From a virus (taxonomy: Duplodnaviria; Caudoviricetes), in the IMG/VR virus record IMGVR_UViG_3300037424_000229, positions 1-30,901 of that record: a DNA stretch of 30,901 bases. One strand, 5' to 3'. Of the stretch, positions 3,921-25,823 are shown piece after piece; positions within the stretch are counted from its first letter, which is position 1; the number at the start of each line of letters is the position of its first letter. The position numbers were made by a program, and so were the translations under genes. The notes beneath the pieces are model-generated. The model had not been told where the DNA came from and ran no database searches. It was given only the letters and a program-made list of their open reading frames with translations.

Positions 3921-4381
3921 CACCACGGGGGATGTTAGCAACGGGGATTATCCACAGCTTCCCGTGTGACGGGAATCCACCGCCATACCTCCGCATGACT
4001 CAGGGGGAGGCCCGCATGGGCACGTACAAGCGGCCCCCGAAAAGCGCACGCGCGTACTCCAAGTGGCTCATGATCCACCGCTACAACACGTACAAGCAGG
4101 CTCTGGCCGCCTCAATGGCGCATCTGGAGTTCGACAGAGGGCCGAAGTCGCGCGAGGCCGCGCTGTTCGTCCAGGTCTTCGCGTGGTTCGGCGACCGCAC
4201 CCACGGAGACCCTGACAACGTGCTCAAGGGGGTTCTCGACGCGCTGTTCGCCTCGGACAAGCACATTGTCAGCCAAGTGGACTACGGCTACGATCCCACT
4301 CATCCGAGGGTGGTTATACGAATCACCGAGGCCCGGACGGGCATACCAGCATGGGCATTGCCCGAGGGTGCGGGCGGATGA
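3917..4381 (+). CDS. rusA: RusA-family Holliday junction resolvase
   Basis: DPDNVLKGVLDAL...D catalytic signature and C-terminal PRVVIRI strand. Confidence 0.85.
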   Translation: MTPRGMLATGIIHSFPCDGNPPPYLRMTQGEARMGTYKRPPKSARAYSKWLMIHRYNTYKQALAASMAHLEFDRGPKSREAALFVQVFAWFGDRTHGDPDNVLKGVLDALFASDKHIVSQVDYGYDPTHPRVVIRITEARTGIPAWALPEGAGG

Positions 4382-4737
4382 ACTGCATCCCGGACCCAGT
4401 AGACGGCCCGGACGGCAGAAAGCTGTGCCCACGGTGCGGGGCTGCGTTGGCCCCGGATGATATGACCGAGCACTGTAAGGCGCTCAGGTGCTGGATTTGC
4501 GGGTACATGCACTATCACGTAGGGATACGCGCACGGGAGCCGAGGGACGCGCATGGGGTCTCACCTCGCGGACGAAAAAAATACAAGCGGCTGAACGATG
4601 CAGACCGGGCGAAAGTGGTCGAGATGAAGGCCCAGGGGTATAAATCGGCAGACCTGGGAGATCTGTTCGGGGTAACAGAAGAGACGATCAACAACATTTA
4701 CCGGGAGCATAAGCAGGCTGAGGCCGTGGAGCCATGA
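4378..4737 (+). CDS. Zn-ribbon plus HTH DNA-binding protein
   Basis: CPRC...CWIC, then LNDADRAKVVEMKAQGYKSADLGDLFGVTEETINNI HTH; ATGA overlaps at both ends. Confidence 0.75.
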   Translation: MNCIPDPVDGPDGRKLCPRCGAALAPDDMTEHCKALRCWICGYMHYHVGIRAREPRDAHGVSPRGRKKYKRLNDADRAKVVEMKAQGYKSADLGDLFGVTEETINNIYREHKQAEAVEP

Positions 4738-5321
4738 AGAAACCGCCCGGGAAGAATCGGCAGAGGACAAGCCCTGCACAGATGAGATTGACCGAAAAGG
4801 AGCACGCGCTGGTCGAGATCATGCGGCAGAACCCGGATATATCCGTCATGGAGGCCGGGAAACGAGCCGGGTATTCCGAGAGTTACTCCAGAACATGGCT
4901 CGGCCCTGACAAGTTCGGCCCGGACGGGAAACTTCGCGAGTTTTTCGTCGCGGAGTGCGAGCGGCAAGGAGTTGGGATGGAAGCCCTTGTGCGCGTGCAT
5001 CGGGAGGCACTGGATGCCAACGTGGTGCTCTCCGTGGTGCCCGGGAAGGCAGGTAAGCCCGAGGATCAGCCCGGGAACACTGGCAAGGCAGGGACGGCCG
5101 GGAGTTCGAGCGTGGAGTTTATTGAGGCTCCTGACCACAAGACGCGGCTGCTGGCCGCCAAGAGTATCGCCAAGATAATTGGGTTGGAGACGCAGCATAT
5201 CGGGGTGGACGTAAACATCACTGGGCAGATGGAGACCGTCGAGCGGCGCAAGCAGGCTGCGATGCGCATTCGCGCGGGGGTCGAGGTGGTGATAGTGAGC
5301 GAGGATGCAGAGCAATCATGA
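4734..5321 (+). CDS. terS: Terminase small subunit (probable)
   Basis: LTEKE...EAGKRAGYSE HTH-like start, PDHKTRLLAAK motif and size typical of TerS; upstream of TerL. Confidence 0.7.
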   Translation: MKKPPGKNRQRTSPAQMRLTEKEHALVEIMRQNPDISVMEAGKRAGYSESYSRTWLGPDKFGPDGKLREFFVAECERQGVGMEALVRVHREALDANVVLSVVPGKAGKPEDQPGNTGKAGTAGSSSVEFIEAPDHKTRLLAAKSIAKIIGLETQHIGVDVNITGQMETVERRKQAAMRIRAGVEVVIVSEDAEQS

Positions 5322-5626
5322 AAATAGCACAGTTCCGAATTCCGGGTGAAACCATCCGCAAGCACGCGCTGAGGCCGGACATCCGCGCCTTATTCAACAT
5401 GTTCGTCGTGGTTGGCTTGTCGTATGATTTTTCCACCGATACCTACGTCTACCATGTTGCCGCGCCATTCCTCGATGAGGTGGACTTGGGCTGCGAGATC
5501 CCTGAGATCACAGGCGAGGGCACCTACTGCGAGGCAGTCCACGAGGTGTCTGTCAAGATCATCGGGCAGGGGGGGAAGGTGCTTGAGGAGGCCGTTGTAG
5601 ACTGGGACGGCCCGAGGCCGACATGA
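5318..5626 (+). CDS. Hypothetical protein
   Basis: 102-aa ORF with ATGA coupling on both sides. Confidence 0.7.
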   Translation: MKIAQFRIPGETIRKHALRPDIRALFNMFVVVGLSYDFSTDTYVYHVAAPFLDEVDLGCEIPEITGEGTYCEAVHEVSVKIIGQGGKVLEEAVVDWDGPRPT

Positions 5627-6015
5627 AAGTCCTACCCAACCATGTGCGGCACGTTGTTATTGAGCTGTACGAGATCGACCTGTACGTGGTGGTCGGCAGC
5701 GTTCAGTACTTTGCGGAGTTCATGCATAACGAATTCGGCGAGGATGAGGTGGTTGACCCCAAACTGGCGGGCAGGACAATGATGTGGTTTGGGCCGGGGA
5801 AGCTCATGATATACATCAAGCGCCCGAGGCTGAAAGACATATCGCATGAGTGTTTTCATGCGGCGTTATTCATCGCTGAGGAGCGGTCGCTTCACTATAC
5901 GAATGAAGACCACGAACCGTTGGCATATTTGCACGGCTATCTCGTGGAGCAGGTACAGGCTACTATTGCAGAGGCGCGGAGTTGGAAGAAGAAGTCTGCA
6001 CCCGATAAAAGTTAG
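5623..6015 (+). CDS. Small HExxH (zincin-like) protein
   Basis: ISHECFHAA motif and downstream E-PLAYL segment. Confidence 0.65.
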   Translation: MKVLPNHVRHVVIELYEIDLYVVVGSVQYFAEFMHNEFGEDEVVDPKLAGRTMMWFGPGKLMIYIKRPRLKDISHECFHAALFIAEERSLHYTNEDHEPLAYLHGYLVEQVQATIAEARSWKKKSAPDKS

Positions 6016-6039
6016 AGTGGCGTTCAGGAGGAAGATGTA

Positions 6040-6309
6040 ATGGAAGGCGACTATACCTTTAGGCCGGAGAGGCATCCACTTGTGTATAAGTATGGGGTGA
6101 CAAAGTCAGGGATAGGGGAGGTCCATGGCCCATTTTTCGACGACTCCCTTGCTGCAATACATACCGTTCGCGTCATCAATACACTAGATGAGGCGATTCG
6201 TCGGACCCTTATTGAGCTAGGCTGGACCCCTCCGCCCGATAATCCACCGGATCCGCAATCTGCCGCGGTCTCCGAGGCCGACGCCATCGAGAGGCTGCAC
6301 CAGCAGTGA
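6040..6309 (+). CDS. Hypothetical protein
   Basis: AGGAGG SD, 89-aa ORF. Confidence 0.65.
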   Translation: MEGDYTFRPERHPLVYKYGVTKSGIGEVHGPFFDDSLAAIHTVRVINTLDEAIRRTLIELGWTPPPDNPPDPQSAAVSEADAIERLHQQ

Positions 6310-6524
6310 TGTACTGCCCTGAGATGGACATGCAATGCGACCTGATGGGCGTAGATGACGCCATGGAGGTGTTTGTCTGTAATGCGCCTGTTAACGGCAG
6401 TAAGTTCACCTCGGATCTGTATGAGTACTTCGACGAGCTGATGGCTGTGGTTTATCCGGCAGACGCATACTGTTGTCCATATAGGTTTCGTGAGGAGATT
6501 CGCTGGAAGGTGGCGTACGCATGA
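6306..6524 (+). CDS. Hypothetical Cys-rich small protein
   Basis: Coupled to the upstream stop and to the TerL start (ATGA). Confidence 0.6.
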   Translation: MMYCPEMDMQCDLMGVDDAMEVFVCNAPVNGSKFTSDLYEYFDELMAVVYPADAYCCPYRFREEIRWKVAYA

Positions 6525-8287
6525 CCGAAAAGATCATACAGATGACGCCAGAGGAGTACGAGGAGGGAATGCTATACCTCGACTTCGAATACTACGCGAA
6601 CACCTACATGTTCATACAGGACAAGGACGGCGAGCTGGTCATCTTCGAGTTCAATACCGCGCAGCGGGCGTTGCACGCGATCATCGAGGATTTGTACAAG
6701 CGCGGGGCTCCCGTGCTCATCATCATACTCAAAGCCCGCCAGATGGGCATTTCCACCTACATGAATGGGCGGAACTACTGGAACGCGACGCGTGACAAGA
6801 ATACACACTGCGTCACTGTGTCCCACGAGCCGCAGGCCACTGACAAGCTGTTCGCAATGATTAAGCGGTTCCATAGCCATTTGCCGGAGGATGAGCGCCC
6901 GGAGACTCGCTATAACAATCTGCAAAAAATCGACTTCAACAAAAAGGACGGAAGCGCTGGCGGGCTGGACAGCTCTGTGTCCGTGGGAACGGCTGGAAAG
7001 TCCGACTTCGGATCAGGGCAGACTATAACCCACCTGCACCTGTCAGAGCTGGCGAAATGGGCAAGGCATATCGAAAAGGATCTACTCACCAGCCTGTTCC
7101 AGGCTGTCGCATTCAAGAACCCGGCTGCAAGCGTAGTGATCGAATCCACGGCGCGCGGAGTCGGCGGGGAGTATTATGACCGATTCTACTCAGCCCGCTA
7201 TGTGTATATGGCGTCGCTCAAGGACGGGAAGATCCTCATCAAGCTCACGATCAACGAGGCGGAGGATGAGGAGAACGCATTTTGCTCTGTGTTCTTCCCG
7301 TGGTTCATCTTCCCTGAGTACCAAATAGAGCCCGGTCCTGACTTCGAGCGCACAGACGAGGAGACGGAGATTGTTGCACTGCATGGGGTGACGGACGCGC
7401 AGCTCAAATGGCGGCGATGGGCGATCATCAACAGATGCGGCAAGGACAAGGAAAAGTTCCGGCAGGAGTATCCAGCCTCGCCGGAAGAGGCATTCCTTGG
7501 CTCAGGCCGCCCAGTGTTCGACCTGTACCAGTGCCAGGCGCTCAAAAAGGCGCTCGAAGTTCGGCGGCCCATTGCCACGTATGAGCACAATGCCTCGTAT
7601 GACTGGGTAGCGGAGAAGGGTGGAAGGCTTGAGGTCTACGAGGAGCCACGTTCTGGCATCCCGTACCTGATCTCGTGCGACGTTGCTGAGGGATTGATTC
7701 ACGGGGATATGACCACGTTCAGCGTGCTCAATCACTACACTGGTGATCAGGTGGCGCACTGGTGTGGCAGTATTGACCCGCTGGAGCTGGCAGATCTGCT
7801 CGCGAGCCTCGGGTATCGGTACAATACTGCCCTGCTCGCCCCTGAGCGGAACAATCATGGAATCGCGACAGTCACGAGGCTCGCGACCAAACTGGACTAT
7901 CCGAACATCTACGCGGAGATGGTAGACGAGCCGCCGAGCAAGCCAAGGAAGCGGTATGGTTGGCTCACGAGCAGTAAGAACCGCAGCCATATTATAGCCA
8001 CCCTCAAAAAGCTCTTCAACGATGGGGAGCACGGGATCCGCTCGTGGCGCACGGTCGAGGAGATGATGTACTTCATCTACAACGACAAGGGCCGTCCAGA
8101 GGGTCAGTCGGGCAAACGGGATGATCAGGTCATGGAATACGCCATCGGGCAGCATGTGCGGCTCATGACACAGCCAGTAACGCCGGAGACGAGGAGAGGC
8201 AGCGGCAGCCCGCGGAGAGAAGCCCCAGTAGCAACGAGTGCGGCAGCAGCGGCGACGAGCCGCCGCAAATGGGCAGCGAGACAATAA
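6521..8287 (+). CDS. terL: Terminase large subunit
   Basis: IIILKARQMGIST (Walker A region), LHLSE (Walker B), VIESTA coupling motif, nuclease motifs DVAEG, ERNNHG and DDQVM. Confidence 0.95.
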   Translation: MTEKIIQMTPEEYEEGMLYLDFEYYANTYMFIQDKDGELVIFEFNTAQRALHAIIEDLYKRGAPVLIIILKARQMGISTYMNGRNYWNATRDKNTHCVTVSHEPQATDKLFAMIKRFHSHLPEDERPETRYNNLQKIDFNKKDGSAGGLDSSVSVGTAGKSDFGSGQTITHLHLSELAKWARHIEKDLLTSLFQAVAFKNPAASVVIESTARGVGGEYYDRFYSARYVYMASLKDGKILIKLTINEAEDEENAFCSVFFPWFIFPEYQIEPGPDFERTDEETEIVALHGVTDAQLKWRRWAIINRCGKDKEKFRQEYPASPEEAFLGSGRPVFDLYQCQALKKALEVRRPIATYEHNASYDWVAEKGGRLEVYEEPRSGIPYLISCDVAEGLIHGDMTTFSVLNHYTGDQVAHWCGSIDPLELADLLASLGYRYNTALLAPERNNHGIATVTRLATKLDYPNIYAEMVDEPPSKPRKRYGWLTSSKNRSHIIATLKKLFNDGEHGIRSWRTVEEMMYFIYNDKGRPEGQSGKRDDQVMEYAIGQHVRLMTQPVTPETRRGSGSPRREAPVATSAAAAATSRRKWAARQ

Positions 8288-8395: not shown

Positions 8396-8859
8396 TTCAA
8401 ATACTCAAGAGACTACACAACAATGACGGGCAGCCGTTATTCACACCTGACCAGATCGGGCTCCTCGTGCAGGGCACGGCACCTCTGCATTTGCAGAACA
8501 GGGCCGAGAAGACGCTGGAAACCTACGTTAAGGTGCAGCGCGGTCCGGTGCCGAGGAACGAAGTCGAGGCGCTTTATCTGCGGAGAGATGAGTACTACCA
8601 GTTCGTCAGCATGATCGAGCCAGCCATGCTGGCATTGCAGCACATCACGAACACGCTCTACGCGATAGAGCGGAAGCTTCAACATCATGGCATCATCCCC
8701 GAAGACGTGGAACAGTGGCATACGGAGGTGGCGGATCTGGCCAAGGAGATGCAGGAAGAGATCAATGCCATCATGCGGGCCAAGGCAGAGGCAACAGCAG
8801 AGTCTGATGGTGGTCAGGAGCCCGAGGGCATGGCGGAGGAAGCAGGGGCAATTTCTTGA
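8311..8859 (+). CDS. Hypothetical protein
   Basis: AAGGAGG SD, 182-aa ORF, N-terminus encoded by 18-bp repeats. Confidence 0.7.
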   Translation: MEKEDLKRKGGIIGKGSFTTKGSFATRGIQILKRLHNNDGQPLFTPDQIGLLVQGTAPLHLQNRAEKTLETYVKVQRGPVPRNEVEALYLRRDEYYQFVSMIEPAMLALQHITNTLYAIERKLQHHGIIPEDVEQWHTEVADLAKEMQEEINAIMRAKAEATAESDGGQEPEGMAEEAGAIS

Positions 8860-8884
8860 CAACTTGTGATCCCTATGTGATAAT
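8856..8884 (+). promoter_or_regulatory. Sigma70-type late promoter upstream of portal
   Basis: TTGACA (8856-8861), 17 nt, GATAAT (8879-8884), with TG extended -10. Confidence 0.8.
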
Positions 8885-8901
8885 ACTCACAAGAGGACCG
8901 C

Positions 8902-8945
8902 AAGAGTCCCACAATCCCGTCATCCGGGGTTGTGGGGCTTTTTTT
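8902..8945 (+). terminator. Intrinsic terminator/attenuator 1 in the portal leader
   Basis: GAGTCCCACAATCCCG-TCATC-CGGGGTTGTGGGGCTT stem followed by a T run. Confidence 0.85.
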
Positions 8946-8975
8946 GTTGGTTCAAAGGGGGCTGAGAGCTAGAAG

Positions 8976-11105
8976 ATGCTGACTGGCGCGAAAGATAGAA
9001 ATCTTGGGCCTCCTGGAACGCTGGCCTCTAGAACTCGTCTTCGCACCCCGGACGAACTGACACAATACGAGCAAGCCCCCGTAAATACTATCCAGCCCAT
9101 ACCGCTGGACATGTTGGCGAATTTTATTGAGTCGCAGTTCAGCCGTGCGCGCAACTCCAAGCTCGCAATCAACCAGATACTCCTGGAGTGCAGACGGCAG
9201 ATCGATGGGCGGTACTCCCCCGAGAAGGAACAGGCGATCCTGGCCGAAGGGAAATCCGGCGTGTTCCTGATGGTCACACAGACCAAATGCCGCGATGCAA
9301 AGGCATGGATCAAGGACGTGCTCGGCGGAGAGCGGTCATGGCTGCTCAAGCCAACCCCCATCGCCGACATGCCGGACGACATCCGCAAAGAGGTTATGAT
9401 GTACGCGGTGAAGTCCGCCCTTGCCGAGGTCATGGTAGCGGCAGCTCAGAGCGGGGCAGCCCCGACCAGTGAAGGATTCATGGCAGCGTATCAGGCCAAG
9501 ATGCACGCCATTGAGCCGCAGATAAAGAGCGCGGAACAGAAGGCAGCCGAGAAGGCCGGGGATAAGATGACCCGCCTGATCGAAGACCAGCAGTCCGATG
9601 GAGAGTGGCACAAGGCACTCGCAGCGTGCATCAGCGACGTTGTGGAGTATCCGGCAGCCATCATGCGGGCCAGCTATGCTCGCAAGCTCATGCTGAACCG
9701 CAAGCAAAACCCTGCCGGACTGCAATTCAGCTTCGAGCCCAAGACCATCAGGACGTTCACCCGCATCCATCCGATTGACTTTTTCCCGGCTCCCGAGACA
9801 GTACGGTGCGGCGACGGTACGCCGATCTGCATCCGGCTCAAGCTCGCGCGCAAGGATATGCAGGAGCTGATAGGTGTGCCCGGGGCCAAGGATGATGTGA
9901 TCCGGGAGATTCTGGATGGACATATGGAGGGACAGTCTTTCAAGCTCCATGCTGACGGCGATTCGGAGATGGCGCAGCTTGACAAGAAGAGCGTCACCAG
10001 CGAGATGGAGAACCTGATCGAGGGCGTGGAGTTTGAGGGTTGGGTGCCGGGCAAGGTATTGCGCCAATGGGGCATGGATGGCGTGGAAGATCCATCCATC
10101 GATTACTTTATCACCGCATACATGGTTGGACGCAGGATTATCAAGGCTGTGATTGACCCTTTGCAGAACGGCATGAGCAAGTTCAGCTCAGCGAGCTTTG
10201 AGCCCTCGAACGACAGCATATGGGGCAAGGGCGTGCCGCAGCTCATCAAGGGCGAGCAGAACGGGTGCAATCAGGCCGCCAGGTCGATCAATGACAACGT
10301 GGCCATCGCATCCGGTCCACTGACTGAGATCAACAAGGATCGGCTCGCAGACGGCCAGACGGTCACGGACATCTACCCGTGGCAGGTGATCCTCACAAAG
10401 GACAAGAACATTGATGGCGGGCAGGTAGTTCGCTATTATCACGCGCCTATGCATGGGGCTGAACTCATCAGCGTGTATGAGCATTGGCTGAAGCAGGCTG
10501 ACCAGCAGTGCGGTATCCCGTCCTTTGCCCACGGTGATTCGCAGGTCGGCGGGGCCGGGAATACTGCGTCAGGGCTCTCGATGCTTATGTCCGCCTCGGG
10601 CCGTGGCGTCAAGCAGGTTATCGGGTACCTGAACAATGACCTGATCACCCCCCCGGTGGAACTATCGTTTGTTCATAATATGTTGATGTGGCCGGACGAG
10701 TCGGTCAAGGGCGACGTTCAGGTTGAGATCAAGGGCACGGAAGCTCTTATGATGCGCGAGCAGCAGATTATCCGCCTCAATGAGTTCCTGACCCGCGTAC
10801 TCAGCTCCGAAATACTCATTCAGATCCTTGGGTATGAGGGGATCGCGAAAATCCTCCGCTCGGTTATGCAGCCCATGGAGGCCATTGACACGGACGACAT
10901 ACTCCCCGAGATCGACGACCACTTCATGGAGCGTATAATGGGCTCTCTCGCAGAGTCGGGAGCTGGCGGTATACCCAACGGCCAACAGGCTCCCGGCTCT
11001 GTTCCCCTTAACCTCGCAGGACAGTTGACGGGTGGACAGGAGACCGCAGTGTTTCAACAGCCTGGAGCGCGGCGGCCCGAGATGGCCGGGGGTGCGGTGA
11101 GATGA
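8976..11105 (+). CDS. Portal protein (head-tail connector, podovirus type)
   Basis: 709 aa, follows TerL; WGKGVP...Q...N.AARS..DN...ASGP and GAGNTASGLSMLM motifs typical of large podophage portals. Confidence 0.9.
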   Translation: MLTGAKDRNLGPPGTLASRTRLRTPDELTQYEQAPVNTIQPIPLDMLANFIESQFSRARNSKLAINQILLECRRQIDGRYSPEKEQAILAEGKSGVFLMVTQTKCRDAKAWIKDVLGGERSWLLKPTPIADMPDDIRKEVMMYAVKSALAEVMVAAAQSGAAPTSEGFMAAYQAKMHAIEPQIKSAEQKAAEKAGDKMTRLIEDQQSDGEWHKALAACISDVVEYPAAIMRASYARKLMLNRKQNPAGLQFSFEPKTIRTFTRIHPIDFFPAPETVRCGDGTPICIRLKLARKDMQELIGVPGAKDDVIREILDGHMEGQSFKLHADGDSEMAQLDKKSVTSEMENLIEGVEFEGWVPGKVLRQWGMDGVEDPSIDYFITAYMVGRRIIKAVIDPLQNGMSKFSSASFEPSNDSIWGKGVPQLIKGEQNGCNQAARSINDNVAIASGPLTEINKDRLADGQTVTDIYPWQVILTKDKNIDGGQVVRYYHAPMHGAELISVYEHWLKQADQQCGIPSFAHGDSQVGGAGNTASGLSMLMSASGRGVKQVIGYLNNDLITPPVELSFVHNMLMWPDESVKGDVQVEIKGTEALMMREQQIIRLNEFLTRVLSSEILIQILGYEGIAKILRSVMQPMEAIDTDDILPEIDDHFMERIMGSLAESGAGGIPNGQQAPGSVPLNLAGQLTGGQETAVFQQPGARRPEMAGGAVR

Positions 11106-11380
11106 TAAGCCCATCTACAGAAGTGCTGGAAATACTGGCGAAACATGGGAATGGCATTGATTTCAATAGATTCTTTCAGTGGATACACAAAGCCCGTGAA
11201 GCCGCGCTGAGCAGTATCCGCACGGAGCGGGATCACAGCGAGCTGATGAAGATTCAAGGCGAACTGGCCGTACTGGATGAGCTGATTGCCGCACACATCG
11301 ACGCTGAGAAGATACTGAAAAACGCTCAGGAGTTCAAGGCACGGCAGGATCAGGCGCGGGAGGCACATGGATCAGGTTAG
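11102..11380 (+). CDS. Small helical phage protein downstream of portal
   Basis: ATGA overlap with portal; ELMKIQGELAVLDEL pattern common at this position. Confidence 0.75.
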   Translation: MISPSTEVLEILAKHGNGIDFNRFFQWIHKAREAALSSIRTERDHSELMKIQGELAVLDELIAAHIDAEKILKNAQEFKARQDQAREAHGSG

Positions 11381-11531
11381 GTGCCCAAAGTGCAACAAGC
11401 TCCTGGCCGAGGCCAAGGACGGGCGGGTTCGCATAAAGTGCCCGAAGTGCAAGACGTTATCCACGTATGTGGATGGGAAGACCAGAATCAGCAGCGTTGT
11501 CGAGGCGGAAGAGCTTACCGCAGTAGCGTAG
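11367..11531 (+). CDS. Mu Com-family zinc-finger protein (54 aa; not in the ORF track)
   Basis: Manual translation MDQVRCPKCNKLLAEAKDGRVRIKCPKCKTLSTYVDGKTRISSVVEAEELTAVA; GGAGG SD; RCxxCNKLL...IKCPxCK is the Com signature. Confidence 0.85.
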   Translation: MDQVRCPKCNKLLAEAKDGRVRIKCPKCKTLSTYVDGKTRISSVVEAEELTAVA

Positions 11532-11571
11532 ACGCACCCGATCTTTGACAGTCGAATAAGAGTCCCACGAG

Positions 11572-11630
11572 GACCGTCATCAGCTCAGAGCCCGTAATCC
11601 GGGTGATTGGGCAATGGCGGTCTTTTTTTT
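11572..11630 (+). terminator. Intrinsic terminator/attenuator 2 upstream of scaffold and capsid
   Basis: GACCGTCAT (11572-11580) pairs with ATGGCGGTC (11614-11622); inner stems GCTCAG/TTGGGC and CCCG/CGGG; then T8. Confidence 0.8.
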
Positions 11631-11772: not shown

Positions 11773-12894
11773 ATGGGCAAGTCACCAGACGATAAAAGAG
11801 GGCCGGAAATGAGGCCCAAGGAACACGCAAAAGCGCAACAGGCCAAGCTGATGGCTGAGTTCGGCATCAAGGGCACACCGGAAGGGACACCGCCTGCACC
11901 ACCTGCACCGCCAGCGGCCCCTGCCGCACCCCCGGAGACACCCCCGGCCCACACGACGCCGGAGGGCACCCCGCAGAACCAGCAGCAGCCGACACCGAAC
12001 AATGACGGACAGCCTGCCCCTGACGGACTTGTCTCAAAGGCGATGTACGACAAGCTCATGCAGTCGTACAGGACATTACTGGGCAAGTACAACAAGGAGG
12101 TCGCCGAGGTAAGAGGCGACGGGAAGGGGCTGTACAAGGGCAGCGAAGGAGCGTCGAAGTCGGGCGGAGAGAACGCCAACGCCGGAGACCCTAAGCTCAT
12201 GCAGACGATCAACGAACTGCAAGGGAAGGTCGAAGCGCTACAGGCAAAGCTCGACGAGAAGGCACAGAAAGGCGCGAAGACGCCTGCACCGGCAGCCGAT
12301 CAGACCGAACTCTACAAGAAGATGGAAGAAGAGTTCGGGCCGGAAGCGGCAACCCTCATGGTGCAGTACGTTCAGCACGCCATAACCCCCATCCAGCAAC
12401 ATGCGAAGAGCCTCGCGGAAGCGGAAACGCAGAAGCAGGCGAAGGCGCGCGAGGACAAGCAGTCAGCTTTCTTCGCATCACTGGATGCGGCACTCCCCAA
12501 CTGGCCGGTCATCAATGATTCGGAAGACTTCTGGACGTGGGCTGAGGGGACGGTAAAACCCGGAACCGGACAGACCTACGGGAACCTGGTATATAGCGCG
12601 CGTGATCGTGGTGACGCCGGGACAGTAGCAAGCCTGATGAAAGAGTACGCCAGCGCACACGGGATGATTTCCACGGCGGGCGGATTCGACGGGCTGGCTG
12701 GTCCCGGTGGCAATAACTCAAGGTCCGCTGGTAGCGGACTTAACGAGGGCGATCAGGGCGGCAAGTTCGATCCACAGGTGTTTCAAGAGGGCATGGCGGA
12801 AATCGCCAGGATGCGGCGTGAGAAAAAGCCGCAGGCGGCGATAGAAGCCAAGAAAGCAGCTCTCTCCAAGCTGACAGGGATCGAAATCACATAG
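11773..12894 (+). CDS. Capsid scaffolding protein (probable)
   Basis: Pro-rich N-terminus, YRTLLGKYN coiled coil, PNWPVINDSEDFWTW motif, directly upstream of the capsid gene; start may be 11809. Confidence 0.8.
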   Translation: MGKSPDDKRGPEMRPKEHAKAQQAKLMAEFGIKGTPEGTPPAPPAPPAAPAAPPETPPAHTTPEGTPQNQQQPTPNNDGQPAPDGLVSKAMYDKLMQSYRTLLGKYNKEVAEVRGDGKGLYKGSEGASKSGGENANAGDPKLMQTINELQGKVEALQAKLDEKAQKGAKTPAPAADQTELYKKMEEEFGPEAATLMVQYVQHAITPIQQHAKSLAEAETQKQAKAREDKQSAFFASLDAALPNWPVINDSEDFWTWAEGTVKPGTGQTYGNLVYSARDRGDAGTVASLMKEYASAHGMISTAGGFDGLAGPGGNNSRSAGSGLNEGDQGGKFDPQVFQEGMAEIARMRREKKPQAAIEAKKAALSKLTGIEIT

Positions 12895-12928: not shown

Positions 12929-13885
12929 ATGAGCGTTCCGTATGTCACTGGCGGTGTTGATTACACCACCGCCACAGGAAACAAGTACATCAGGCTGGCG
13001 TTTGCAGCAAACTCCATCGAGCGTTTCTACAACGAGACGTTCCTGTACCAGATCACCACGACCAAGTACAGCGGTGAGATCACCAAGAAGGGCGACAGCG
13101 TGGTCATCGCCACCCGGCCCACGGTCACGATCAGCGACTACGACAAGGGGCAGGAGATCAACTGGCAGCTCCTTGAGAGCGAGCCTGTGACCATGACCGT
13201 GGACCGCGCAAAGTCCTTCGCGTTCCTCATGGACACGATTGACTTCACGCAGATCGAGGACGCAGCCTCGAAACTGAAAGAGGCTGAGGAAGACTCCTCC
13301 GAGCAGATGGCGGAAGTCATCGAAACGGCATTGCTCGCCGATGTCTACGTTGACGCCCATGCCTCGAACAAGGGCACGGCGGCAGGCGCGAAGTACGGCC
13401 TGTTTAACCTCGGTACCACGGGAGCCCCGGTGGTCGTGACCGAGCACAACGTCCTCAACATCTTCAACCAGATGACGGGCGTGGCCAACGAGCAGAACTG
13501 GCCGAAGTCCGGGCGGTGGGCGGTCATCCCGTCGTGGATGGACTCCATCATCATGGACTCCGACCTCAAGCCTGTCAGCGTGTCCGGTGACAGCACGAGC
13601 CTGATCCGTTCCGGCATGATCGGCAAGATCGGCCTCTGGTCAGTGTACTCCACGAACCTCTATACCTCTGTCACGGACAGCGGATACGAGTGCTTCAACA
13701 TGATCTTCGGTCACGAGTCCGCCATCGGGTTCGTGTCGCAGCTCGTGAAGGTGGAGTACCACGAGCAGTTCGAGAATACCTTTGCCAAGGGCATGAAGGG
13801 GCTGAACGTCCACGACTGGAAGGTCGTGAAGCCCGAGAGCCTGGGCGTGGTCTACTGCCGTTACGGCGGTCGCTCGCTGGTCTAA
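12929..13885 (+). CDS. Major capsid protein (HK97 fold, P22-coat/T7-like type)
   Basis: 318 aa; YSGEITKKGDSVVI..PTVTISDY, GRWAVIP, GMIGKIG and KGLNVHDWKVVKP motifs; strongly biased codon usage. Confidence 0.9.
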   Translation: MSVPYVTGGVDYTTATGNKYIRLAFAANSIERFYNETFLYQITTTKYSGEITKKGDSVVIATRPTVTISDYDKGQEINWQLLESEPVTMTVDRAKSFAFLMDTIDFTQIEDAASKLKEAEEDSSEQMAEVIETALLADVYVDAHASNKGTAAGAKYGLFNLGTTGAPVVVTEHNVLNIFNQMTGVANEQNWPKSGRWAVIPSWMDSIIMDSDLKPVSVSGDSTSLIRSGMIGKIGLWSVYSTNLYTSVTDSGYECFNMIFGHESAIGFVSQLVKVEYHEQFENTFAKGMKGLNVHDWKVVKPESLGVVYCRYGGRSLV

Positions 13886-19769: not shown

Positions 19770-21863
19770 ATGTCACGGATCCGCTTGATAGGTGACGCCG
19801 TTGTGGCGGCAGGGTACGCCGGGTTCGCCCGGAAGAAGGCCCGCGCCATGCAGGACGGCTTGATCCGCAGCGAGAAGGCCAGCGCGGTCAAGAAAATCCA
19901 GATGCACAATGCCGTGATCCGCATTCTTGCGAGCCCGAAGGGCTATAGCGTGACAATCGAGGGTAAGGGAAAGAAGCTGTATATCATCGCTGCCGTAGGT
20001 GAAACCACCGCGACGTGGGGGCCGGAAACGCGGAAGTTCTATGCTCCAGATGGTACGGAGGTTCAGGAGCCAAAGGACATCCGCATATTCGATGATGGCA
20101 AGTACGTGCAGGACACGGCCGTGGTTGATTCTGACGACCCGGATGCACTCATCTACGCCTACGACCCGAGCGGGGTCGGTGTCGCGGCCACGATCAACAG
20201 CGGCATGGCTGCCCTGAAGGTTGAGGAAAGGACCGTGCGGTACATTCTCAATCAGGCAATGGAGGATGAAGTACATGATTTTCACGGTGACAGCATATGG
20301 GGAGTCGCTTCCTACAATTACTGTGCTGCCGATGTTTCGGCAATCTATGCCCCGTGGAAGCTCAAGGGCAAGGCAGGCATGGTGAGGTATGCCGGTGACG
20401 AGATAATATCCTTGCACCATCTTTGGTCAGGTCAACTAGGCATTGTTGCAACATCAGACAACGTCCAAAGCGGCTCGTTCGCCGACAACTCACCGAGGGC
20501 CGCGCGCATCTACCGTCAGGCCATTGGAAGCAAGGTTGGTCGTGAGTATATCGAACTGGAGTGTGGGCGCGATCCGGTGGTGCTCGCGACAAAACAGTTC
20601 GGCAGCGCGCCGGAAGTGGAGATCGTGCGCGCGGTTGATTTTGACTGGTTCGGCGGGACGAGCAAGGTCTACGACTATACCGGCGTCACGACACTCTCCA
20701 CCCCGCCTGCGGTTCCCGTAGACGGCGAGACGCATATCGTCGGAGAGGCCCCCACCGGGGCGTGGGCGTCAATTATCCCAGGAACGGCAGTCAGATGGAA
20801 CGCAGCGGGTCCGTATTGGGTAGCTGGCACCCGGATGCTCGCCCCATTCAAGCAGGAGAAATATTCCTTCACTGATCCCAAGACGGACGTGGATGAGTGG
20901 ACAAGATGCTCTGATCCTGCGAACGACACCTGCCATTACCTTCTGCCCGGACTGTCAAGCGGTGTGGAAACTATATCCGATGATGTGCTGCTCCCATTCG
21001 GGATCGGGCCTGATGGACTGACCGGAGTGAGGAACAGGAAGGCCAGCGACATGGCAACGGCGAACATGGCTGTTGTGTGTAATGGACAGGTCGTGGAGGC
21101 TACGGGCGACCTCGATACGGTAGTGCTTCACAGCACAGACGCCTACGGCCCGGTCATCATACTCCCGGTCAGGTTTGAGGTCATACACTCGCACCACGAT
21201 GGACATCACAACGCCGTGGTGTTCCGTAAGACCACGGTACAGGAATACTCAAGCGAACTCCTGCCGTACAAGATGTGGAACTCGGGGATTGGGGCGAACG
21301 CCCAAGTCCGCAAGACCACGGTTCGCTCGATCATGACGTACCACATCAACGTGAATGGGATCACGCACGATCTCCCGTATACCTGTGAAATCCGCGAGTA
21401 CATCATGACACTCGCGCCCGACGCCTATTCAGGGCCAGCTGTGCCGACTTTATCCTTCCTGCACACGAATCCCTGGGTTGACGTGGGGTACGATGCTGAC
21501 GGTGTGGAGCTTGACGGAAGCGACGCGAACCGGAACATGACGCGCGTATTCACCTCCGCGACGCCCGGACTCCTCATCCTCGCGGTCGATGCATTCCCGG
21601 TGAAGTACCGTCACAGCCTGAATCAGAAGGCAGTGCTTTACGATGCGATTACCTATCAGGCGCTCGTACCTGAGTATGACGAGGTAGTGAGTCCGAAAAA
21701 CTGGCCGACTACATCTGACGGAGATTACCCAGATGCCCCTGACCGGCTGTGGAGGCTCTTCCATCGTGGCGGCGGGCATGTGATGGATGCCAAAACTCCA
21801 ATGAAGGCCGATGGCGTCACCGCATGGAATCGCGTGAACGGCCTCGCGCTTGTGGAGGTGTAG
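19770..21863 (+). CDS. Tail-associated protein
   Basis: 697-aa ORF in the tail block, GAGGA SD; internal DUF2793-like motif. Confidence 0.7.
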   Translation: MSRIRLIGDAVVAAGYAGFARKKARAMQDGLIRSEKASAVKKIQMHNAVIRILASPKGYSVTIEGKGKKLYIIAAVGETTATWGPETRKFYAPDGTEVQEPKDIRIFDDGKYVQDTAVVDSDDPDALIYAYDPSGVGVAATINSGMAALKVEERTVRYILNQAMEDEVHDFHGDSIWGVASYNYCAADVSAIYAPWKLKGKAGMVRYAGDEIISLHHLWSGQLGIVATSDNVQSGSFADNSPRAARIYRQAIGSKVGREYIELECGRDPVVLATKQFGSAPEVEIVRAVDFDWFGGTSKVYDYTGVTTLSTPPAVPVDGETHIVGEAPTGAWASIIPGTAVRWNAAGPYWVAGTRMLAPFKQEKYSFTDPKTDVDEWTRCSDPANDTCHYLLPGLSSGVETISDDVLLPFGIGPDGLTGVRNRKASDMATANMAVVCNGQVVEATGDLDTVVLHSTDAYGPVIILPVRFEVIHSHHDGHHNAVVFRKTTVQEYSSELLPYKMWNSGIGANAQVRKTTVRSIMTYHINVNGITHDLPYTCEIREYIMTLAPDAYSGPAVPTLSFLHTNPWVDVGYDADGVELDGSDANRNMTRVFTSATPGLLILAVDAFPVKYRHSLNQKAVLYDAITYQALVPEYDEVVSPKNWPTTSDGDYPDAPDRLWRLFHRGGGHVMDAKTPMKADGVTAWNRVNGLALVEV

Positions 21864-21864
21864 G

Positions 21865-24102
21865 ATGCCACAGGACGACAATTTCACACTGCCATGGTAC
21901 GCAATCCCAACAGGGGAATCCTATACCCTTCCTGATGGGAGTACGTTTACGAAGTACAGCCTTGCCCCAGTGGGGGCAGGGAACACGGATCCTATGGACC
22001 CTGCGAGCGGGAACGCAAATAAGCCAAGCAATGCGGCACAGGCAACGCCGGGCACCGTCCCGTACACGAAGCCCGTCTACCCATATGCTGAGTTCACGTA
22101 CAAAGAGATCAGCAGCGGGAAGGTGGAGTTCAAGGATGCGAGCATAGGGTATCCGTCCAAATATCACTGGGAGTTTGGTGACGGCTCCACCTCCACCGTG
22201 CCATCGCCGACACACAAGTATCAGATCCCTGGGTCATATGAAGTCTACCTCTCAGTGACCACGGAGAAGGGCACGAATACGAAGGGCGCTACCGTCACTG
22301 TGGCTGGAACCGTCTCCCCAAGTATCGCATTCACCGCGCATAAGGCAGGTCTCACGGTCACGTTCGCCGATGCGTCCACGGGGGTTCCATCAGGTGCAGG
22401 CTTGCAATGGGATTTTGGTGATGGGACAACAGGGAGTGGGCTGAATCCAGTTCATGAATATCAGGAGGCTGGAGCATACACCGTTACGCTTGATGCTGGA
22501 GCCTATGGCACTTCATCCCAGGCACTGAATGTGGTGGACCAACAGTTCACGGACGATCTTCTATTCAGCTTCGATAATGCCGATGGTGTGTCGGCTGCAA
22601 CGTACACTCCCGATAGCGGAGACCCCGCCTATGTTGTGCAGGGTGCAGGGACTACAAACCCCGCCCTCGTTTACATCAGCGGCGGTAAGATAACCCTTTC
22701 GGGCGTCTATGTCGGGCTGCAATGGTACCCAGACATATCCGCATTGCCATCCACAAGGAACTCGAATCCGTCAGATTGGCGACAGCTTAAAGTAAAGGTT
22801 GCGCTCACTGGCGATGGGTATTTAGGCGCGTGGATGTATGACCTCGGTTTTGATATAGATGGCGGCTTTATCACTGAAATTTACTGTGGAAGCGTCTATC
22901 TGGCCGGGTCATCTGGAATTGCCGCAGGATCGGGGCAGACCGTAGTGCTGGCCGCGAACGATATACTGAAAAAATATTACCTCTTCGTAGACGATGTGCT
23001 TGAGTTGGAGGGATCATACACCGGGACGTTCGACCCTTATCAGAGGCCACATATTGCTGTTTCCACTGATGCTGCTGGCGGCACAATCACGCTGTACGAG
23101 TTCTCGGCCTCAAGCGAGGAGTACGTGGAGGTGCTGAACGAATCGAGAATCCCCGCTGCCGCATTTGCGATAAGCCCAAAGACCGGGGATGCACCGCTCA
23201 CAGTGCAGTTTGATAATAACTCGCTCAGGGCGGATTCATACGTGTGGGAGTTTGGGGATGGATCAACGAGCACGGCGGAGAACCCGTCGCACGTTTACGC
23301 GAATGGAGGTATCTACGCTGCCAGGCTGACGGCAACGAATACTGAGTCCGGGCTCACGAGCACCTATATCATGTCGATCACGGTTGAATCCGTGGCTCTG
23401 GAGCTTGCGTTCTATACCCCAGTGGCGAAGTTCACGCCATCCCTTTATGTGGCCGAGCAGGGGCAGGTCGTGAGCTTCATAAACACGACCACGGGCGCGT
23501 TCACGAGTGCATGGGATTTCGGAGATGGCGGAACGTCAACAGTGAAATCTCCGTCGCATGTGTTCCAGAGTCCGGGTAATTACAATGTAGCGCTCACGGT
23601 GACTGATTCCGTCACCGGGCTGTCAACATCGTTCAGGATACCGATCATGATCGTGGCCGTAGGAGCGTCTACGTCTCACTCCGACGCCGCCCCAATAGTT
23701 GAGGCCATCGCAGACACGCGAAGCATCCTGAAGGGCGGGGTGGTGGAGTTCTCGGCAAGCGCCACGAACCCGGTTGATTCCTACGCATGGGACTTCGGCG
23801 ACGGATACGCTGCCAGCGGGGCAGCGGCATCCCACTCATATCAAACAGCCGGGACATACACCGTCACCCTGACCACGACGAACTCCAAGGGGACATCCAT
23901 ACAGACGTTCTCGGTCGAGGTGGCTGACGTGAAGTTCGCTGGAACGGGGCTCGCGCTGTACTACCTGATCGACAAGGTGAACCATCGAGTGCATATTTTC
24001 GACTCCGCGGGAAAGCTCACGGGATCATTCGGCGGGCTTGGGAGCGGAGACGGAGAATTTATCAATCCAACGGCAGTGCTGCCGATAGTGGCGAAAACAT
24101 AA
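21865..24102 (+). CDS. PKD-repeat virion protein (5 PKD domains, central unknown domain, one C-terminal NHL repeat)
   Basis: Five W(D/E)FGDG...H.Y/F...G.Y motifs; ATG 21865 with GGAGG SD. Confidence 0.9.
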   Translation: MPQDDNFTLPWYAIPTGESYTLPDGSTFTKYSLAPVGAGNTDPMDPASGNANKPSNAAQATPGTVPYTKPVYPYAEFTYKEISSGKVEFKDASIGYPSKYHWEFGDGSTSTVPSPTHKYQIPGSYEVYLSVTTEKGTNTKGATVTVAGTVSPSIAFTAHKAGLTVTFADASTGVPSGAGLQWDFGDGTTGSGLNPVHEYQEAGAYTVTLDAGAYGTSSQALNVVDQQFTDDLLFSFDNADGVSAATYTPDSGDPAYVVQGAGTTNPALVYISGGKITLSGVYVGLQWYPDISALPSTRNSNPSDWRQLKVKVALTGDGYLGAWMYDLGFDIDGGFITEIYCGSVYLAGSSGIAAGSGQTVVLAANDILKKYYLFVDDVLELEGSYTGTFDPYQRPHIAVSTDAAGGTITLYEFSASSEEYVEVLNESRIPAAAFAISPKTGDAPLTVQFDNNSLRADSYVWEFGDGSTSTAENPSHVYANGGIYAARLTATNTESGLTSTYIMSITVESVALELAFYTPVAKFTPSLYVAEQGQVVSFINTTTGAFTSAWDFGDGGTSTVKSPSHVFQSPGNYNVALTVTDSVTGLSTSFRIPIMIVAVGASTSHSDAAPIVEAIADTRSILKGGVVEFSASATNPVDSYAWDFGDGYAASGAAASHSYQTAGTYTVTLTTTNSKGTSIQTFSVEVADVKFAGTGLALYYLIDKVNHRVHIFDSAGKLTGSFGGLGSGDGEFINPTAVLPIVAKT

Positions 24103-24111
24103 GGAGACCAT

Positions 24112-24291
24112 ATGGGATCGACGACTGATAACTTCGAATTCTACCTTCCCGATCTAGGCGAAGTGGGAACATCGTGGTATGACGATGTGAACGCCAACTT
24201 CACGAAGTTGGATGGGATGCTCGACACGATTCTGACCAAGGACAATGAAGTCCTTATCAAGGACGGGAACGTCCTGTTCAAACCAGCATAA
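24112..24291 (+). CDS. 59-aa protein resembling a tail-fibre N-terminal anchor segment (not in the ORF track)
   Basis: MGSTTDNFEFYLPDLGEVGTSWYDDVNANFTKLDGMLDTILTKDNEVLIKDGNVLFKPA; AAGGAG SD; fills the gap exactly. Confidence 0.8.
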   Translation: MGSTTDNFEFYLPDLGEVGTSWYDDVNANFTKLDGMLDTILTKDNEVLIKDGNVLFKPA

Positions 24292-24297
24292 GGAGAT

Positions 24298-24690
24298 ATG
24301 ACCATGAGTGATGCCCGGACAGAACTGGACGCAAGGCTCGCAACCGTTACAGGGATCGACGCGAAAACCATCGCCACGACCTCGCTCTACACCGTGCCCA
24401 CGGGCAAGACGTTTATCCCCACAAAGGTGGTGATCCGCGTTACGGCCTTCACGGTAGGAGCAAAGGCGGTGCAGGCTGCATTCACGCTCGGCGGCAACGG
24501 AGCATTCGATGACTTCAAGGCATCGAGCAACCCGACCATCAGTGCCCTCGGGCAGGTGGCGATTATGACTGCTGAGAACGCCGCCTTCGCACAGCAGGAT
24601 GCTGGAGACGTGTTTTCCATCGACATTGCTACCGCCTCGGACGCCACGACCGAGACCTGGGCCGTAGACGTGTTCGGATACCTCATCTAG
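24298..24690 (+). CDS. Virion structural protein (beta-sandwich)
   Basis: AAGGAG SD; LYTVPTGKTFI...VDVFGYLI pattern. Confidence 0.75.
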   Translation: MTMSDARTELDARLATVTGIDAKTIATTSLYTVPTGKTFIPTKVVIRVTAFTVGAKAVQAAFTLGGNGAFDDFKASSNPTISALGQVAIMTAENAAFAQQDAGDVFSIDIATASDATTETWAVDVFGYLI

Positions 24691-24698
24691 AGGACTGA

Positions 24699-25823
24699 AT
24701 GAGCTTGTACGAAACCAGATGGGGATTGTTCGCGTGGGGCTCGGCAACGAGCGCATGGGGATTTGCCGCGCCCACCGATCACGTCTATGTGGTGGACTCA
24801 GGCAACCATCGCGTTCAGGAATTCCTCGCGGATGGGACATACGTCTCCCAGTTCGGAAGCTACGGGTCGGCAGACGGCGAGTTCATCAACCCCTACGGGA
24901 TTGCCGACGACGGCGAGTTCCTGTACGTCACCGACTCGGGCAACAACCGCGTCCAGAAGTTCCAGTACGATGGCACGCACGTCCTGACGTTCGGCTCGAC
25001 CGGAACCGGAGAGGGGCAGTTCAACACCCCTATCGGGATAGCGGTAAACGACTCCTACATATTCGTCGTGGACTCGGGCAACAACCGCATCCAGATATTC
25101 ATGAAGGACGGGACGTTCCTCTTCGAGTTCGGAGAGTACGGCAGCGGATACCTTCAATTCAACGGGCCAACTGATATTGCGGTTGACGATACGAACATCT
25201 ACATCGAGGACGACGGCAATAGCAGAACAGTCATTGTGCCGCTCTCGGGCCTCGGGTGGGGTGCATACTGCGACGCTTTCACTGATGTGCCCGATGGGCA
25301 GGTTACGGCCTTATGTGGTGTTGTCGGATCCGTAGACGCGACTGCACCTATAGCACACGGCCTTGGGAAAGCCCTGAATGGTATTGTCGGGTCTGTAAAC
25401 GTAACACTGGACAACCCTGCGATAACCATAGACATGGGCGGGGCAGTAGAGGCGGAAGCGACCACACCGACCGGGCAGGCTACAGGGCTCTCTGGAATAG
25501 TCGGTAAGGTGGACGCTTTACTCACGAATCCAATTGGGCAGGCGTATGGACGTATAGACGAAGTGTGCTCGGTGGACGTGGAGGTGACAAGCCCGGGTGG
25601 CGTTGCCAAGGTCTTGTGCGGGGTAATCGGCTCCATCGACGCGCATGCAGCCCCTGCCACCGTGGTGTCCGGTAAGCTCTATGCCGGTGTTGTTGGCTCA
25701 GTGGAAGGTGAGGCGGATGTCCCGTCAACCGTGGTTACTGGAGGAGCCAGTGTTGAAGGCACCTGTGATGTTGAAATCGACTCACCGATAGGGTCGTGTT
25801 ATGCGGTGGAGGCTGCTGCATGA
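24699..25823 (+). CDS. NHL-repeat tail protein with Gly/Val-rich repetitive C-terminal half
   Basis: Four D(S/D)GN.R motifs with GxFxxPxxIA linkers. Confidence 0.85.
   Translation: MSLYETRWGLFAWGSATSAWGFAAPTDHVYVVDSGNHRVQEFLADGTYVSQFGSYGSADGEFINPYGIADDGEFLYVTDSGNNRVQKFQYDGTHVLTFGSTGTGEGQFNTPIGIAVNDSYIFVVDSGNNRIQIFMKDGTFLFEFGEYGSGYLQFNGPTDIAVDDTNIYIEDDGNSRTVIVPLSGLGWGAYCDAFTDVPDGQVTALCGVVGSVDATAPIAHGLGKALNGIVGSVNVTLDNPAITIDMGGAVEAEATTPTGQATGLSGIVGKVDALLTNPIGQAYGRIDEVCSVDVEVTSPGGVAKVLCGVIGSIDAHAAPATVVSGKLYAGVVGSVEGEADVPSTVVTGGASVEGTCDVEIDSPIGSCYAVEAAA

Follow-up and report, generated by a model that had tools for sequence, protein, structure and literature searches.

A Com-family zinc ribbon as a candidate RNA-binding antiterminator of head genes in a tailed phage

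Introduction

What allows the head genes of a tailed phage to be read when the strong promoter in front of them leads, after a short leader, into an intrinsic terminator? The question is raised by IMG/VR record IMGVR_UViG_3300037424_000229 (Caudoviricetes), a virus record that is analysed here over its entire 30,901 nt (the window) and is probably a fragment. Between two strong terminators the window carries a gene for a 54-aa zinc-ribbon protein of the Com family, and each terminator overlaps a small hairpin (box) of the type bound by Com. An earlier note, made from the sequence alone, had proposed that this Com homologue binds the GAG-containing hairpins and blocks folding of the terminators. 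The match of the boxes to an experimentally selected target motif, covariation within the box, co-occurrence of box-bearing terminators with com genes and the split between these loci and com genes followed by methylases all lend support to this proposal. As far as sequence comparison can tell, we consider it likely that the 54-aa protein is a site-specific RNA-binding antiterminator that lets the head genes be read.

Two box-bearing terminators precede the head genes

The first gate lies directly in front of the portal gene. A sigma-70 promoter with an extended −10 element (TTGACA-17-TG-GATAAT, 8856–8884, + strand) matches the consensus at 11 of 12 positions, a score reached elsewhere in the whole window only at 838 (+) and 449 (−). 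Transcription would start near 8891, judging from the usual spacing, so that Com box 1 begins ~2 nt into the RNA. This box, GA-GGAC-CGCAA-GA-GTCC (8893–8909, +), is a predicted hairpin of the type GAGNNCC-N4-GAGNNCC, and its 3′ half is the 5′ arm of intrinsic terminator 1 (8902–8945, +; 7-U tract from 8939). The second gate is built alike: box 2, GA-GTCC-CAC-GA-GGAC (11560–11574, +; GAGNNCC-N2-GAGNNCC), provides with its 3′ half the 5′ arm of intrinsic terminator 2 (11569–11630, +; 8-U tract from 11623). The com stop codon lies 26 nt before this second element as the earlier note delimited it. The promoter, both hairpins, both terminators and the com open reading frame (ORF) described there were confirmed base for base.

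A script scan found 11 terminator-like sites in the window. The two strongest are terminators 1 and 2, which are also its only two strong terminators on the + strand, with stems of −25 and −30 kcal/mol before the U-tracts. Since a box is present in only 2 of 736 background terminators (from 160 com-less control and portal loci), its presence at two of two strong terminators is not due to chance. A third box-terminator match (27054–27000) is weak and antisense to an ORF, and a box-like match at 4718–4733 (+), over the ribosome-binding site just before the start of the terS-like gene, is probably fortuitous, although a genuine site there would be translational. There are 20 boxes on the + strand, and we therefore treat both of these matches as chance.

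Folding of the two leaders, one of the checks suggested in the earlier note, predicts both the terminators and the alternative box folds (z = −5.8 and −5.4 for leaders 1 and 2; none of 200 shuffles was as stable). At both sites the small hairpin and the base of the terminator are mutually exclusive in the predicted folds, and the upper terminator stem begins directly behind the box. Box 1 has a predicted pair probability of at least 0.99 at tested RNA lengths up to 8934, and box 2 folds with a predicted probability of 0.89–1.0 at tested lengths up to 11618. The cost of enforcing the box at the start of the U-tract is small, 4.2 kcal/mol at site 1 and 2.2 kcal/mol at site 2, with 4 and 3 bases, respectively, staying unpaired ahead of the tract. 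The median switching cost is 5.4 kcal/mol in 85 unique box-terminators with 33 stem types, pooled from the motif and com loci described below and chosen for pairing. The apical CCCG-T(C/A)ATC-CGGG that the earlier note saw in both terminators is real, but it is private to the window phage: none of the 85 other box-terminators has the same CCCG-TNATC-CGGG loop, none of 21 unique viral contexts bearing this loop has a box, and we rejected it as a feature of the system.

These folds suggest how the switch might work. In the nascent RNA the box hairpin would fold first and the upper terminator stem would stack directly behind it. With no protein bound, the last 3–4 G/C bases before the U-tract would displace the 3′ arm of the box and complete the terminator, releasing a ~55-nt transcript at gate 1 or ending the portal-com transcript at gate 2. 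Com on the GA-containing loop would keep the box folded, the terminator stem would fall short of the U-tract, and the polymerase would continue into portal and, later, scaffold, capsid and tail genes. The anatomy of the locus, the order and energies of predicted folding, the match to the target, the covariation, the co-occurrence with com and the enrichment of virion genes downstream are what the analysis shows; protein binding, read-through, timing, feedback and the trigger we infer, the trigger being, at a guess, the rising copy number after replication.

With com behind gate 1, leakage through that gate would amplify itself. Such positive feedback is plausible, and we regard the arguments for and against it as balanced. 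The further idea that it stands in for a Q-like protein, also from the earlier note, is weakened by three features of the window. A promoter-like site within the portal gene (10912–10939, +; 10 of 12 matches, by consensus only) could allow com and the preceding 92-aa ORF to be expressed without passing gate 1, thereby seeding or bypassing the feedback. The other two are the ORF at 4351–4737 (+) and the terminase genes (4734–8287, +), which lie upstream of both gates and hence are not gated.

The arrangement of promoter, short leader and terminator resembles that of a lambdoid late leader, and the box might accordingly be a loading site comparable to lambda nut boxB, at which Com modifies RNA polymerase for processive antitermination, unless it is ORF 4351–4737 that acts in a Q-like manner at the 8856 promoter. 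This ORF has weak matches to helix-turn-helix (HTH) and zinc-ribbon domains and is located after rusA and before the terminase genes, presumably a typical position for a late regulator. Com itself gave weak zinc-ribbon matches in remote sequence comparison, including the zinc ribbons of RNA polymerase subunit P (E = 0.013). However, each gated terminator has an overlapping box of its own, with five in one of the contigs described below, an arrangement that a processive factor would not require. Inspection by eye revealed no −10-like pause element after the inferred start site, and no member of the Q, RinA/ArpU or Ogr families is among the matches shown for 42 ORFs, with 9 further ORFs lacking a PHROG match and the contig possibly incomplete. 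Processive antitermination is thus unlikely to operate here. ORF 4351–4737, for which a homologue search found none, may be a second late regulator outside the switch as shown.

Site-specific antitermination by Com would have counterparts in the BglG/LicT/SacY (CAT-RAT) and ANTAR (AmiR, NasR, EutV; PMC3369936) systems, where a protein-held hairpin competes with the base of a terminator, as is predicted for the window. By contrast, the Com fold is unrelated to these proteins, its members have 30–55 aa and no sensor domain, and the target is a single small hairpin. Those systems control metabolic operons, whereas phage morphogenesis genes are gated here and the regulator lies behind its own gate. 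The locus probably works like a RAT/ANTAR-type antiterminator made of Com parts.

Lambdoid Q, AlpA of Pseudomonas aeruginosa and gp39 of phage P23-45 are similar in that a strong promoter, a short leader and a terminator hold the late genes until a phage protein acts. These proteins bind RNA polymerase and are processive, whereas here each gated terminator has its own RNA box. Lambdoid N, likewise bound to RNA polymerase, is processive too.

The Com-family protein and its RNA target

The protein encoded at 11367–11531 (+) has the CxxC...CxxC pattern of a zinc ribbon and belongs to the Com family, scoring 30.5 bits with Pfam PF10122 (Zn_ribbon_Com; cut-off 22.9) and matching PHROGs 6417 and 13819 (‘gpCom’ and ‘translational regulator’ families). 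It is identical to Mu Com in 14 of 30 aligned columns, and the four cysteines, R5 and L13 are conserved across 16 homologues. The Com-type zinc ribbon is also its best Pfam match, no CAT or ANTAR domain being found there (best 5 of 37 matches); nor did NCBIfam return a CAT or ANTAR family. The predicted structure is all-beta (predicted local distance difference test score 65), without a PDB match at E up to 0.001. Neighbours of the protein in the Atlas fall into Com clusters at 0.93, automatically named ‘Com family DNA-binding transcriptional regulator’.

According to Nowacka et al. (2019, PMC6483171), Com was shown experimentally to bind RNA hairpins. Ligand selection by SELEX, for which a Com homologue from Haemophilus was used, yielded NGAGNNCC(N)2-3GAGNNCCNN hairpins, and the GA of the loop is protected upon binding. 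Site 2 of the window fits this motif exactly, and site 1 does so with an N4 loop, which is one base longer.

The window locus shares with com-mom of Mu a small CCCC zinc-ribbon protein, a GA-stem-loop-GA-stem target, a box adjoining the com gene and the overlap of the 3′ arm of the box with a larger downstream hairpin that has to be disrupted. Yet in the window this hairpin ends in a U-tract and is an intrinsic terminator, whereas that of Mu hides a start codon, and the gated genes are those for portal and scaffold/capsid rather than for DNA modification. In addition, there are two sites, one of which directly follows the promoter, 2.5 kb upstream of com. As the earlier note had stated, no mom or methylase gene follows com, the next genes being scaffold-like and capsid; neither is there one among the matches shown for the 42 ORFs or the 9 further ones, in a contig that may be incomplete. 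Although the protein belongs to the Com family, its locus does not qualify as a com-mom system.

Box-terminators next to com genes

The box was traced in two directions, from com genes and from the motif, and the co-occurrence with Com that the earlier note had proposed to look for was found in both. In the protein-first survey, 80 com loci formed 21 clusters, 13 of them with a terminator within 150 nt of the com stop codon. A strict rule, admitting only SELEX boxes, found no com-adjacent box-terminator in these 21 clusters; under a rule relaxed after their inspection, 9 of the 13 terminators had a box. The relaxed rule was then frozen and applied to new loci, collected with degenerate knuckle patterns (at least 120 genome loci and at least 120 viral loci), for which all counts are among the matches listed. 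In genomes, 14 of 77 clusters had a terminator and 7 of these a box (6 of 13 without the tuning-set protein). In viruses, these numbers were 16 of 52 and 11, one of the 11 being on a contig also recovered by the motif. Overall, the overlap of hairpin and terminator is kept beside homologous com genes at 17 of 29 held-out terminators, compared to the 2 of 736 in the background. Any box near the com stop codon was found in 34 of 77 genome and 31 of 52 viral clusters, versus 121 of 1500 random windows.

A scan of the gene that comes next covered 78 of the 129 clusters. Methylase or Mom genes follow com in 42 of them, never with a box-terminator in front (0 of 42), whereas the 10 com genes with a box-terminator are followed by scaffold genes (2) or unassigned genes (8, at E up to 1e-8) and in no case by methylase or Mom. 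This split indicates that the com family has at least two wirings, of which antitermination is the minority in our samples. The frozen rule also recovers the natural Mu mom site and finds boxes before the mom/methylase genes of JD024, RsoM1USA and phiARM81ld, whereas it finds none before that of KS5; a box-terminator is absent from all five loci, Mu included.

The post-transcriptional wiring could hold for the window as well, with Com affecting translation, or else the stability and processing of the RNA, as in Mu, and with leaky terminators that merely set gene dosage. Such action is the sole activity of the Com family that has been demonstrated, according to the same paper (PMC6483171), and 9 of the 78 scanned com loci precede structural genes without a box-terminator. 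The geometry of the two gates points the other way. No ribosome-binding site lies within either terminator hairpin; the next ones are ~10–20 nt (site 1) and ~125 nt (site 2) beyond the U-tracts, with start codons 31 and 143 nt past the terminators. Moreover, 7-U and 8-U tracts behind stems of −25 and −30 kcal/mol look strong rather than leaky. We regard a purely post-transcriptional role in the window as quite unlikely.

Some com loci are organized in other ways. Com-like genes without a box-terminator stand directly before the tape measure gene in L559, L564, L572 and L357 and directly before a protease gene in L561, L605, L556 and L562, possibly representing a third, translational wiring on structural genes. 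In two chromosomal loci (L429, L453) an ABC-transporter-type gene comes after the Com-like gene, and the module is thus used outside phages. The box falls within the last codons of com in eight loci (L377, L416, L417, L502, L510, L539, L599, L739), where the terminating ribosome and Com could compete for it.

Covariation in the box and association of the motif with Com

For the motif-first survey, IMG/VR was searched with the SELEX-type pattern followed by a T-run, which itself demanded no stem pairing, and with a control pattern of equal pairing potential. Both searches yielded samples, of at least 122 and at least 119 loci, respectively. Among the matches listed, a terminator takes the second half of the box as its 5′ arm in 50 of 104 unique matches, but only in 11 of 100 controls. 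Of these 50, 27 have Watson-Crick pairs at both variable positions (permutation mean 5.7, maximum 15 in 5000), as opposed to 7 of 100 for the control pattern (permutation mean 6.1). When only the 35 boxes with non-identical halves are considered, 27 pair if G-U is allowed (permutation mean 9.4, maximum 19). These outside loci, which come from unrelated phages, supply the covariation that the earlier note sought in the swapped stem arms of the two window sites, a swap which alone is no evidence.

The same data bear on the possibility that Com is a DNA-binding regulator of tandem GAG..CC direct repeats, the RNA hairpin being incidental. The automatic names of the Atlas clusters would fit, and 15 of 50 sites consist of two identical halves, where 4.6 would be expected. 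However, 13 of these 15 are self-complementary; among the 36 boxes in which the first variable dinucleotide is not self-complementary, 26 pair and only 2 are repeats, and this covariation favours an RNA hairpin over a DNA repeat. Furthermore, G-U ranks second in frequency among the outer pairs (11 of 50), and RNA hairpins are what Com was shown to bind (PMC6483171). A DNA-binding role is thus very unlikely.

The association of box-terminators with Com is also seen from the motif side. After removal of 6 duplicates, 50 of 56 terminator-type loci were retained and 48 of their contigs searched, together with 45 of the first 50 control loci; many of the searched records are fragments. A PF10122 match was present in 21 of the 48 terminator-type contigs (12 above the cut-off) and in 1 of the 45 controls (p = 1e-6). 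The genes behind box-terminators are mostly those for terminase, portal, scaffold or protease: in 34 loci with wide flanks, the first downstream gene encodes a packaging, virion or lysis protein in 22, another protein in 6 and an unassigned one in 6. Rfam gave two chance-level matches only for 20 motif loci.

Layout and distribution in other phages

In seven larger contigs picked for carrying both motif and com, 15 of 253 terminators are box-terminators, with between 0 and 5 in each contig. A scan of 11 genes located behind them gave two terminases, one portal, one tape measure, one integrase and six unassigned genes. Four of the seven contigs have, on the strand of com, a box-terminator 3.5–6.5 kb upstream of the gene, as feedback would require, although intervening terminators are possible. 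One locus (L012), whose proteins are 25–28% identical to those of the window phage, repeats its arrangement, with portal and com followed by a box-terminator, a small ORF, scaffold and capsid. In the cultured Acetoanaerobium phage ANDSL2_ph1 (PP197248.1), com ends in a box that has the site 1 stem, plus a terminator, behind which a small integrase-annotated gene leads toward the terminase genes. In MaeS, also cultured, a box-terminator is found at the end of an unannotated Com-like reading. Box-terminators before integrase- or recombinase-annotated genes, and not virion genes, were also observed in L054/G021 (56223, +) and L739 (33470–33510). By contrast, tblastn matches from Arthrobacter have no box-terminator, nor is there a Com-like reading in the Laroye locus, and we rejected them.

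Several observations weigh against antitermination by Com. SELEX was performed with another Com homologue, and the loop of site 1 is N4. Because the 21 clusters served to tune the relaxed box rule, the 9 of 13 are not independent; kinship among sequences inflates the permutation tests, and the control contigs are unmatched for taxonomy. No terminator lies within 150 nt in 63 of 77 and 36 of 52 held-out com clusters, and nine of these stand before structural genes. Promoters just upstream of box-terminators are weakly enriched (11 of 84 versus 22 of 341, p = 0.065, not significant). One locus (L568) has portal followed by com without a box-terminator, and neither com nor a box-terminator was found in any of 80 closer portal relatives (28–38% identity; 68 with at least 1.2 kb downstream), so that the system lacks conservation within this portal family and the module is gained or lost independently of the head genes. 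That the system is real elsewhere but only a relic or coincidence in the window phage, as these closer relatives and the lack of a close relative that could show local conservation might imply, is highly improbable, given a com ORF that is intact and keeps its four cysteines, a pair of boxes, likewise intact, whose stems differ and which lie at the two strongest terminators, the background of 2 in 736 and, as a weak point, a variant contig of depth 2 that keeps box 2 with one loop and one stem base changed, which could be error.

Beyond the window, we incline slightly to the view that Com-type zinc ribbons of 30–55 aa are minimal RNA-binding antiterminators, a widespread family not recognised so far, which with a portable 15–19-nt box make a self-amplifying late-gene switch; unrelated tailed phages would have it, with as many as five gates in one genome. 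If so, the textbook translational switch of mom would represent a single form of a general module, whose partner can be either a terminator or a ribosome-binding site, and a family annotated from Mu mom only, or automatically named DNA-binding, would gain a second, transcriptional role. It would provide a candidate late-gene mechanism for many phages without a recognisable late activator, with a searchable signature (a short, often unannotated Com ORF plus a box-terminator), and so small a protein-RNA pair with a variable stem would make a compact synthetic transcription switch.

We found no paper that gives Com an antitermination role in literature listings and the beginnings of abstracts, a search that left subscription journals mostly outside. 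A term search of a 2025 review of RNA-binding antiterminators found neither ‘phage’ nor ‘zinc’ (PMC12591593). The main text of Weinberg 2017 (PMC5737381) and six supplementary files of Fremin 2023 (PMC10690425) contain no such terms, although the supplement of the former and three other files of the latter might list the RNA as an unnamed candidate. Ghequire 2015 (PMC4684702) notes com homologues before tailocin cargo genes, giving no mechanism.

Genes of the window

By Pfam and PHROG matches, the window encodes from left to right HTH and ribbon-helix-helix (RHH) regulators, a replication initiator, a DnaC-like loader, RusA, the zinc-ribbon/HTH ORF, terminase subunits, an SU10-type portal, the Com-family ORF, a probable scaffold, major capsid, adaptor, head-closure and tail proteins. 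Two divergent sigma-70 promoters with 11 of 12 matches (838–867, +; 449–421, −) flank the HTH/RHH genes, which makes this region resemble an early control region; the leftward ORFs scanned yielded neither a repressor nor an integrase. The terminase genes encode a small subunit-like protein (4734–5321, +; PHROG terS-like, E = 0.004) and the large subunit (6521–8287, +; PHROG terL, E = 2e-22). The first gene past gate 1 is that of the portal protein (8976–11105, +), which matches PF23899 just below the cut-off (E = 5e-7); its homologues are 26–36% identical, and 18 of 19 contain PF23899. The 92-aa ORF between portal and com (11102–11380, +) overlaps both genes and has no significant family match in Pfam, PHROGs or NCBIfam. 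The first gene past gate 2 (11773–12894, +) matches PHROG 13678 of unknown function (E = 3e-14) and is labelled probable scaffold because of its position between portal and capsid. It is followed by the major capsid gene (12929–13885, +; PHROG 267, E = 4e-28) and, on the same strand, by adaptor, head-closure and tail genes. In the tail region, 21850–25823 (+) encodes large proteins with PKD repeats and NHL beta-propellers (Pfam), which are possible adhesion or receptor-binding parts.

At E up to 5, the window has no Rfam match, and single-protein searches with Com, portal and capsid found no close relatives of the phage. The sequencing runs listed with matching DNA are sediment metagenomes, with no RNA run among them. 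In one sequencing run, contig ends matching the portal gene at 9161–9191, 9402–9431 and 9801–9830 run on into a CRISPR-like repeat similar to those of type I-E, which suggests that a host in that run carries at least three spacers against the window phage.

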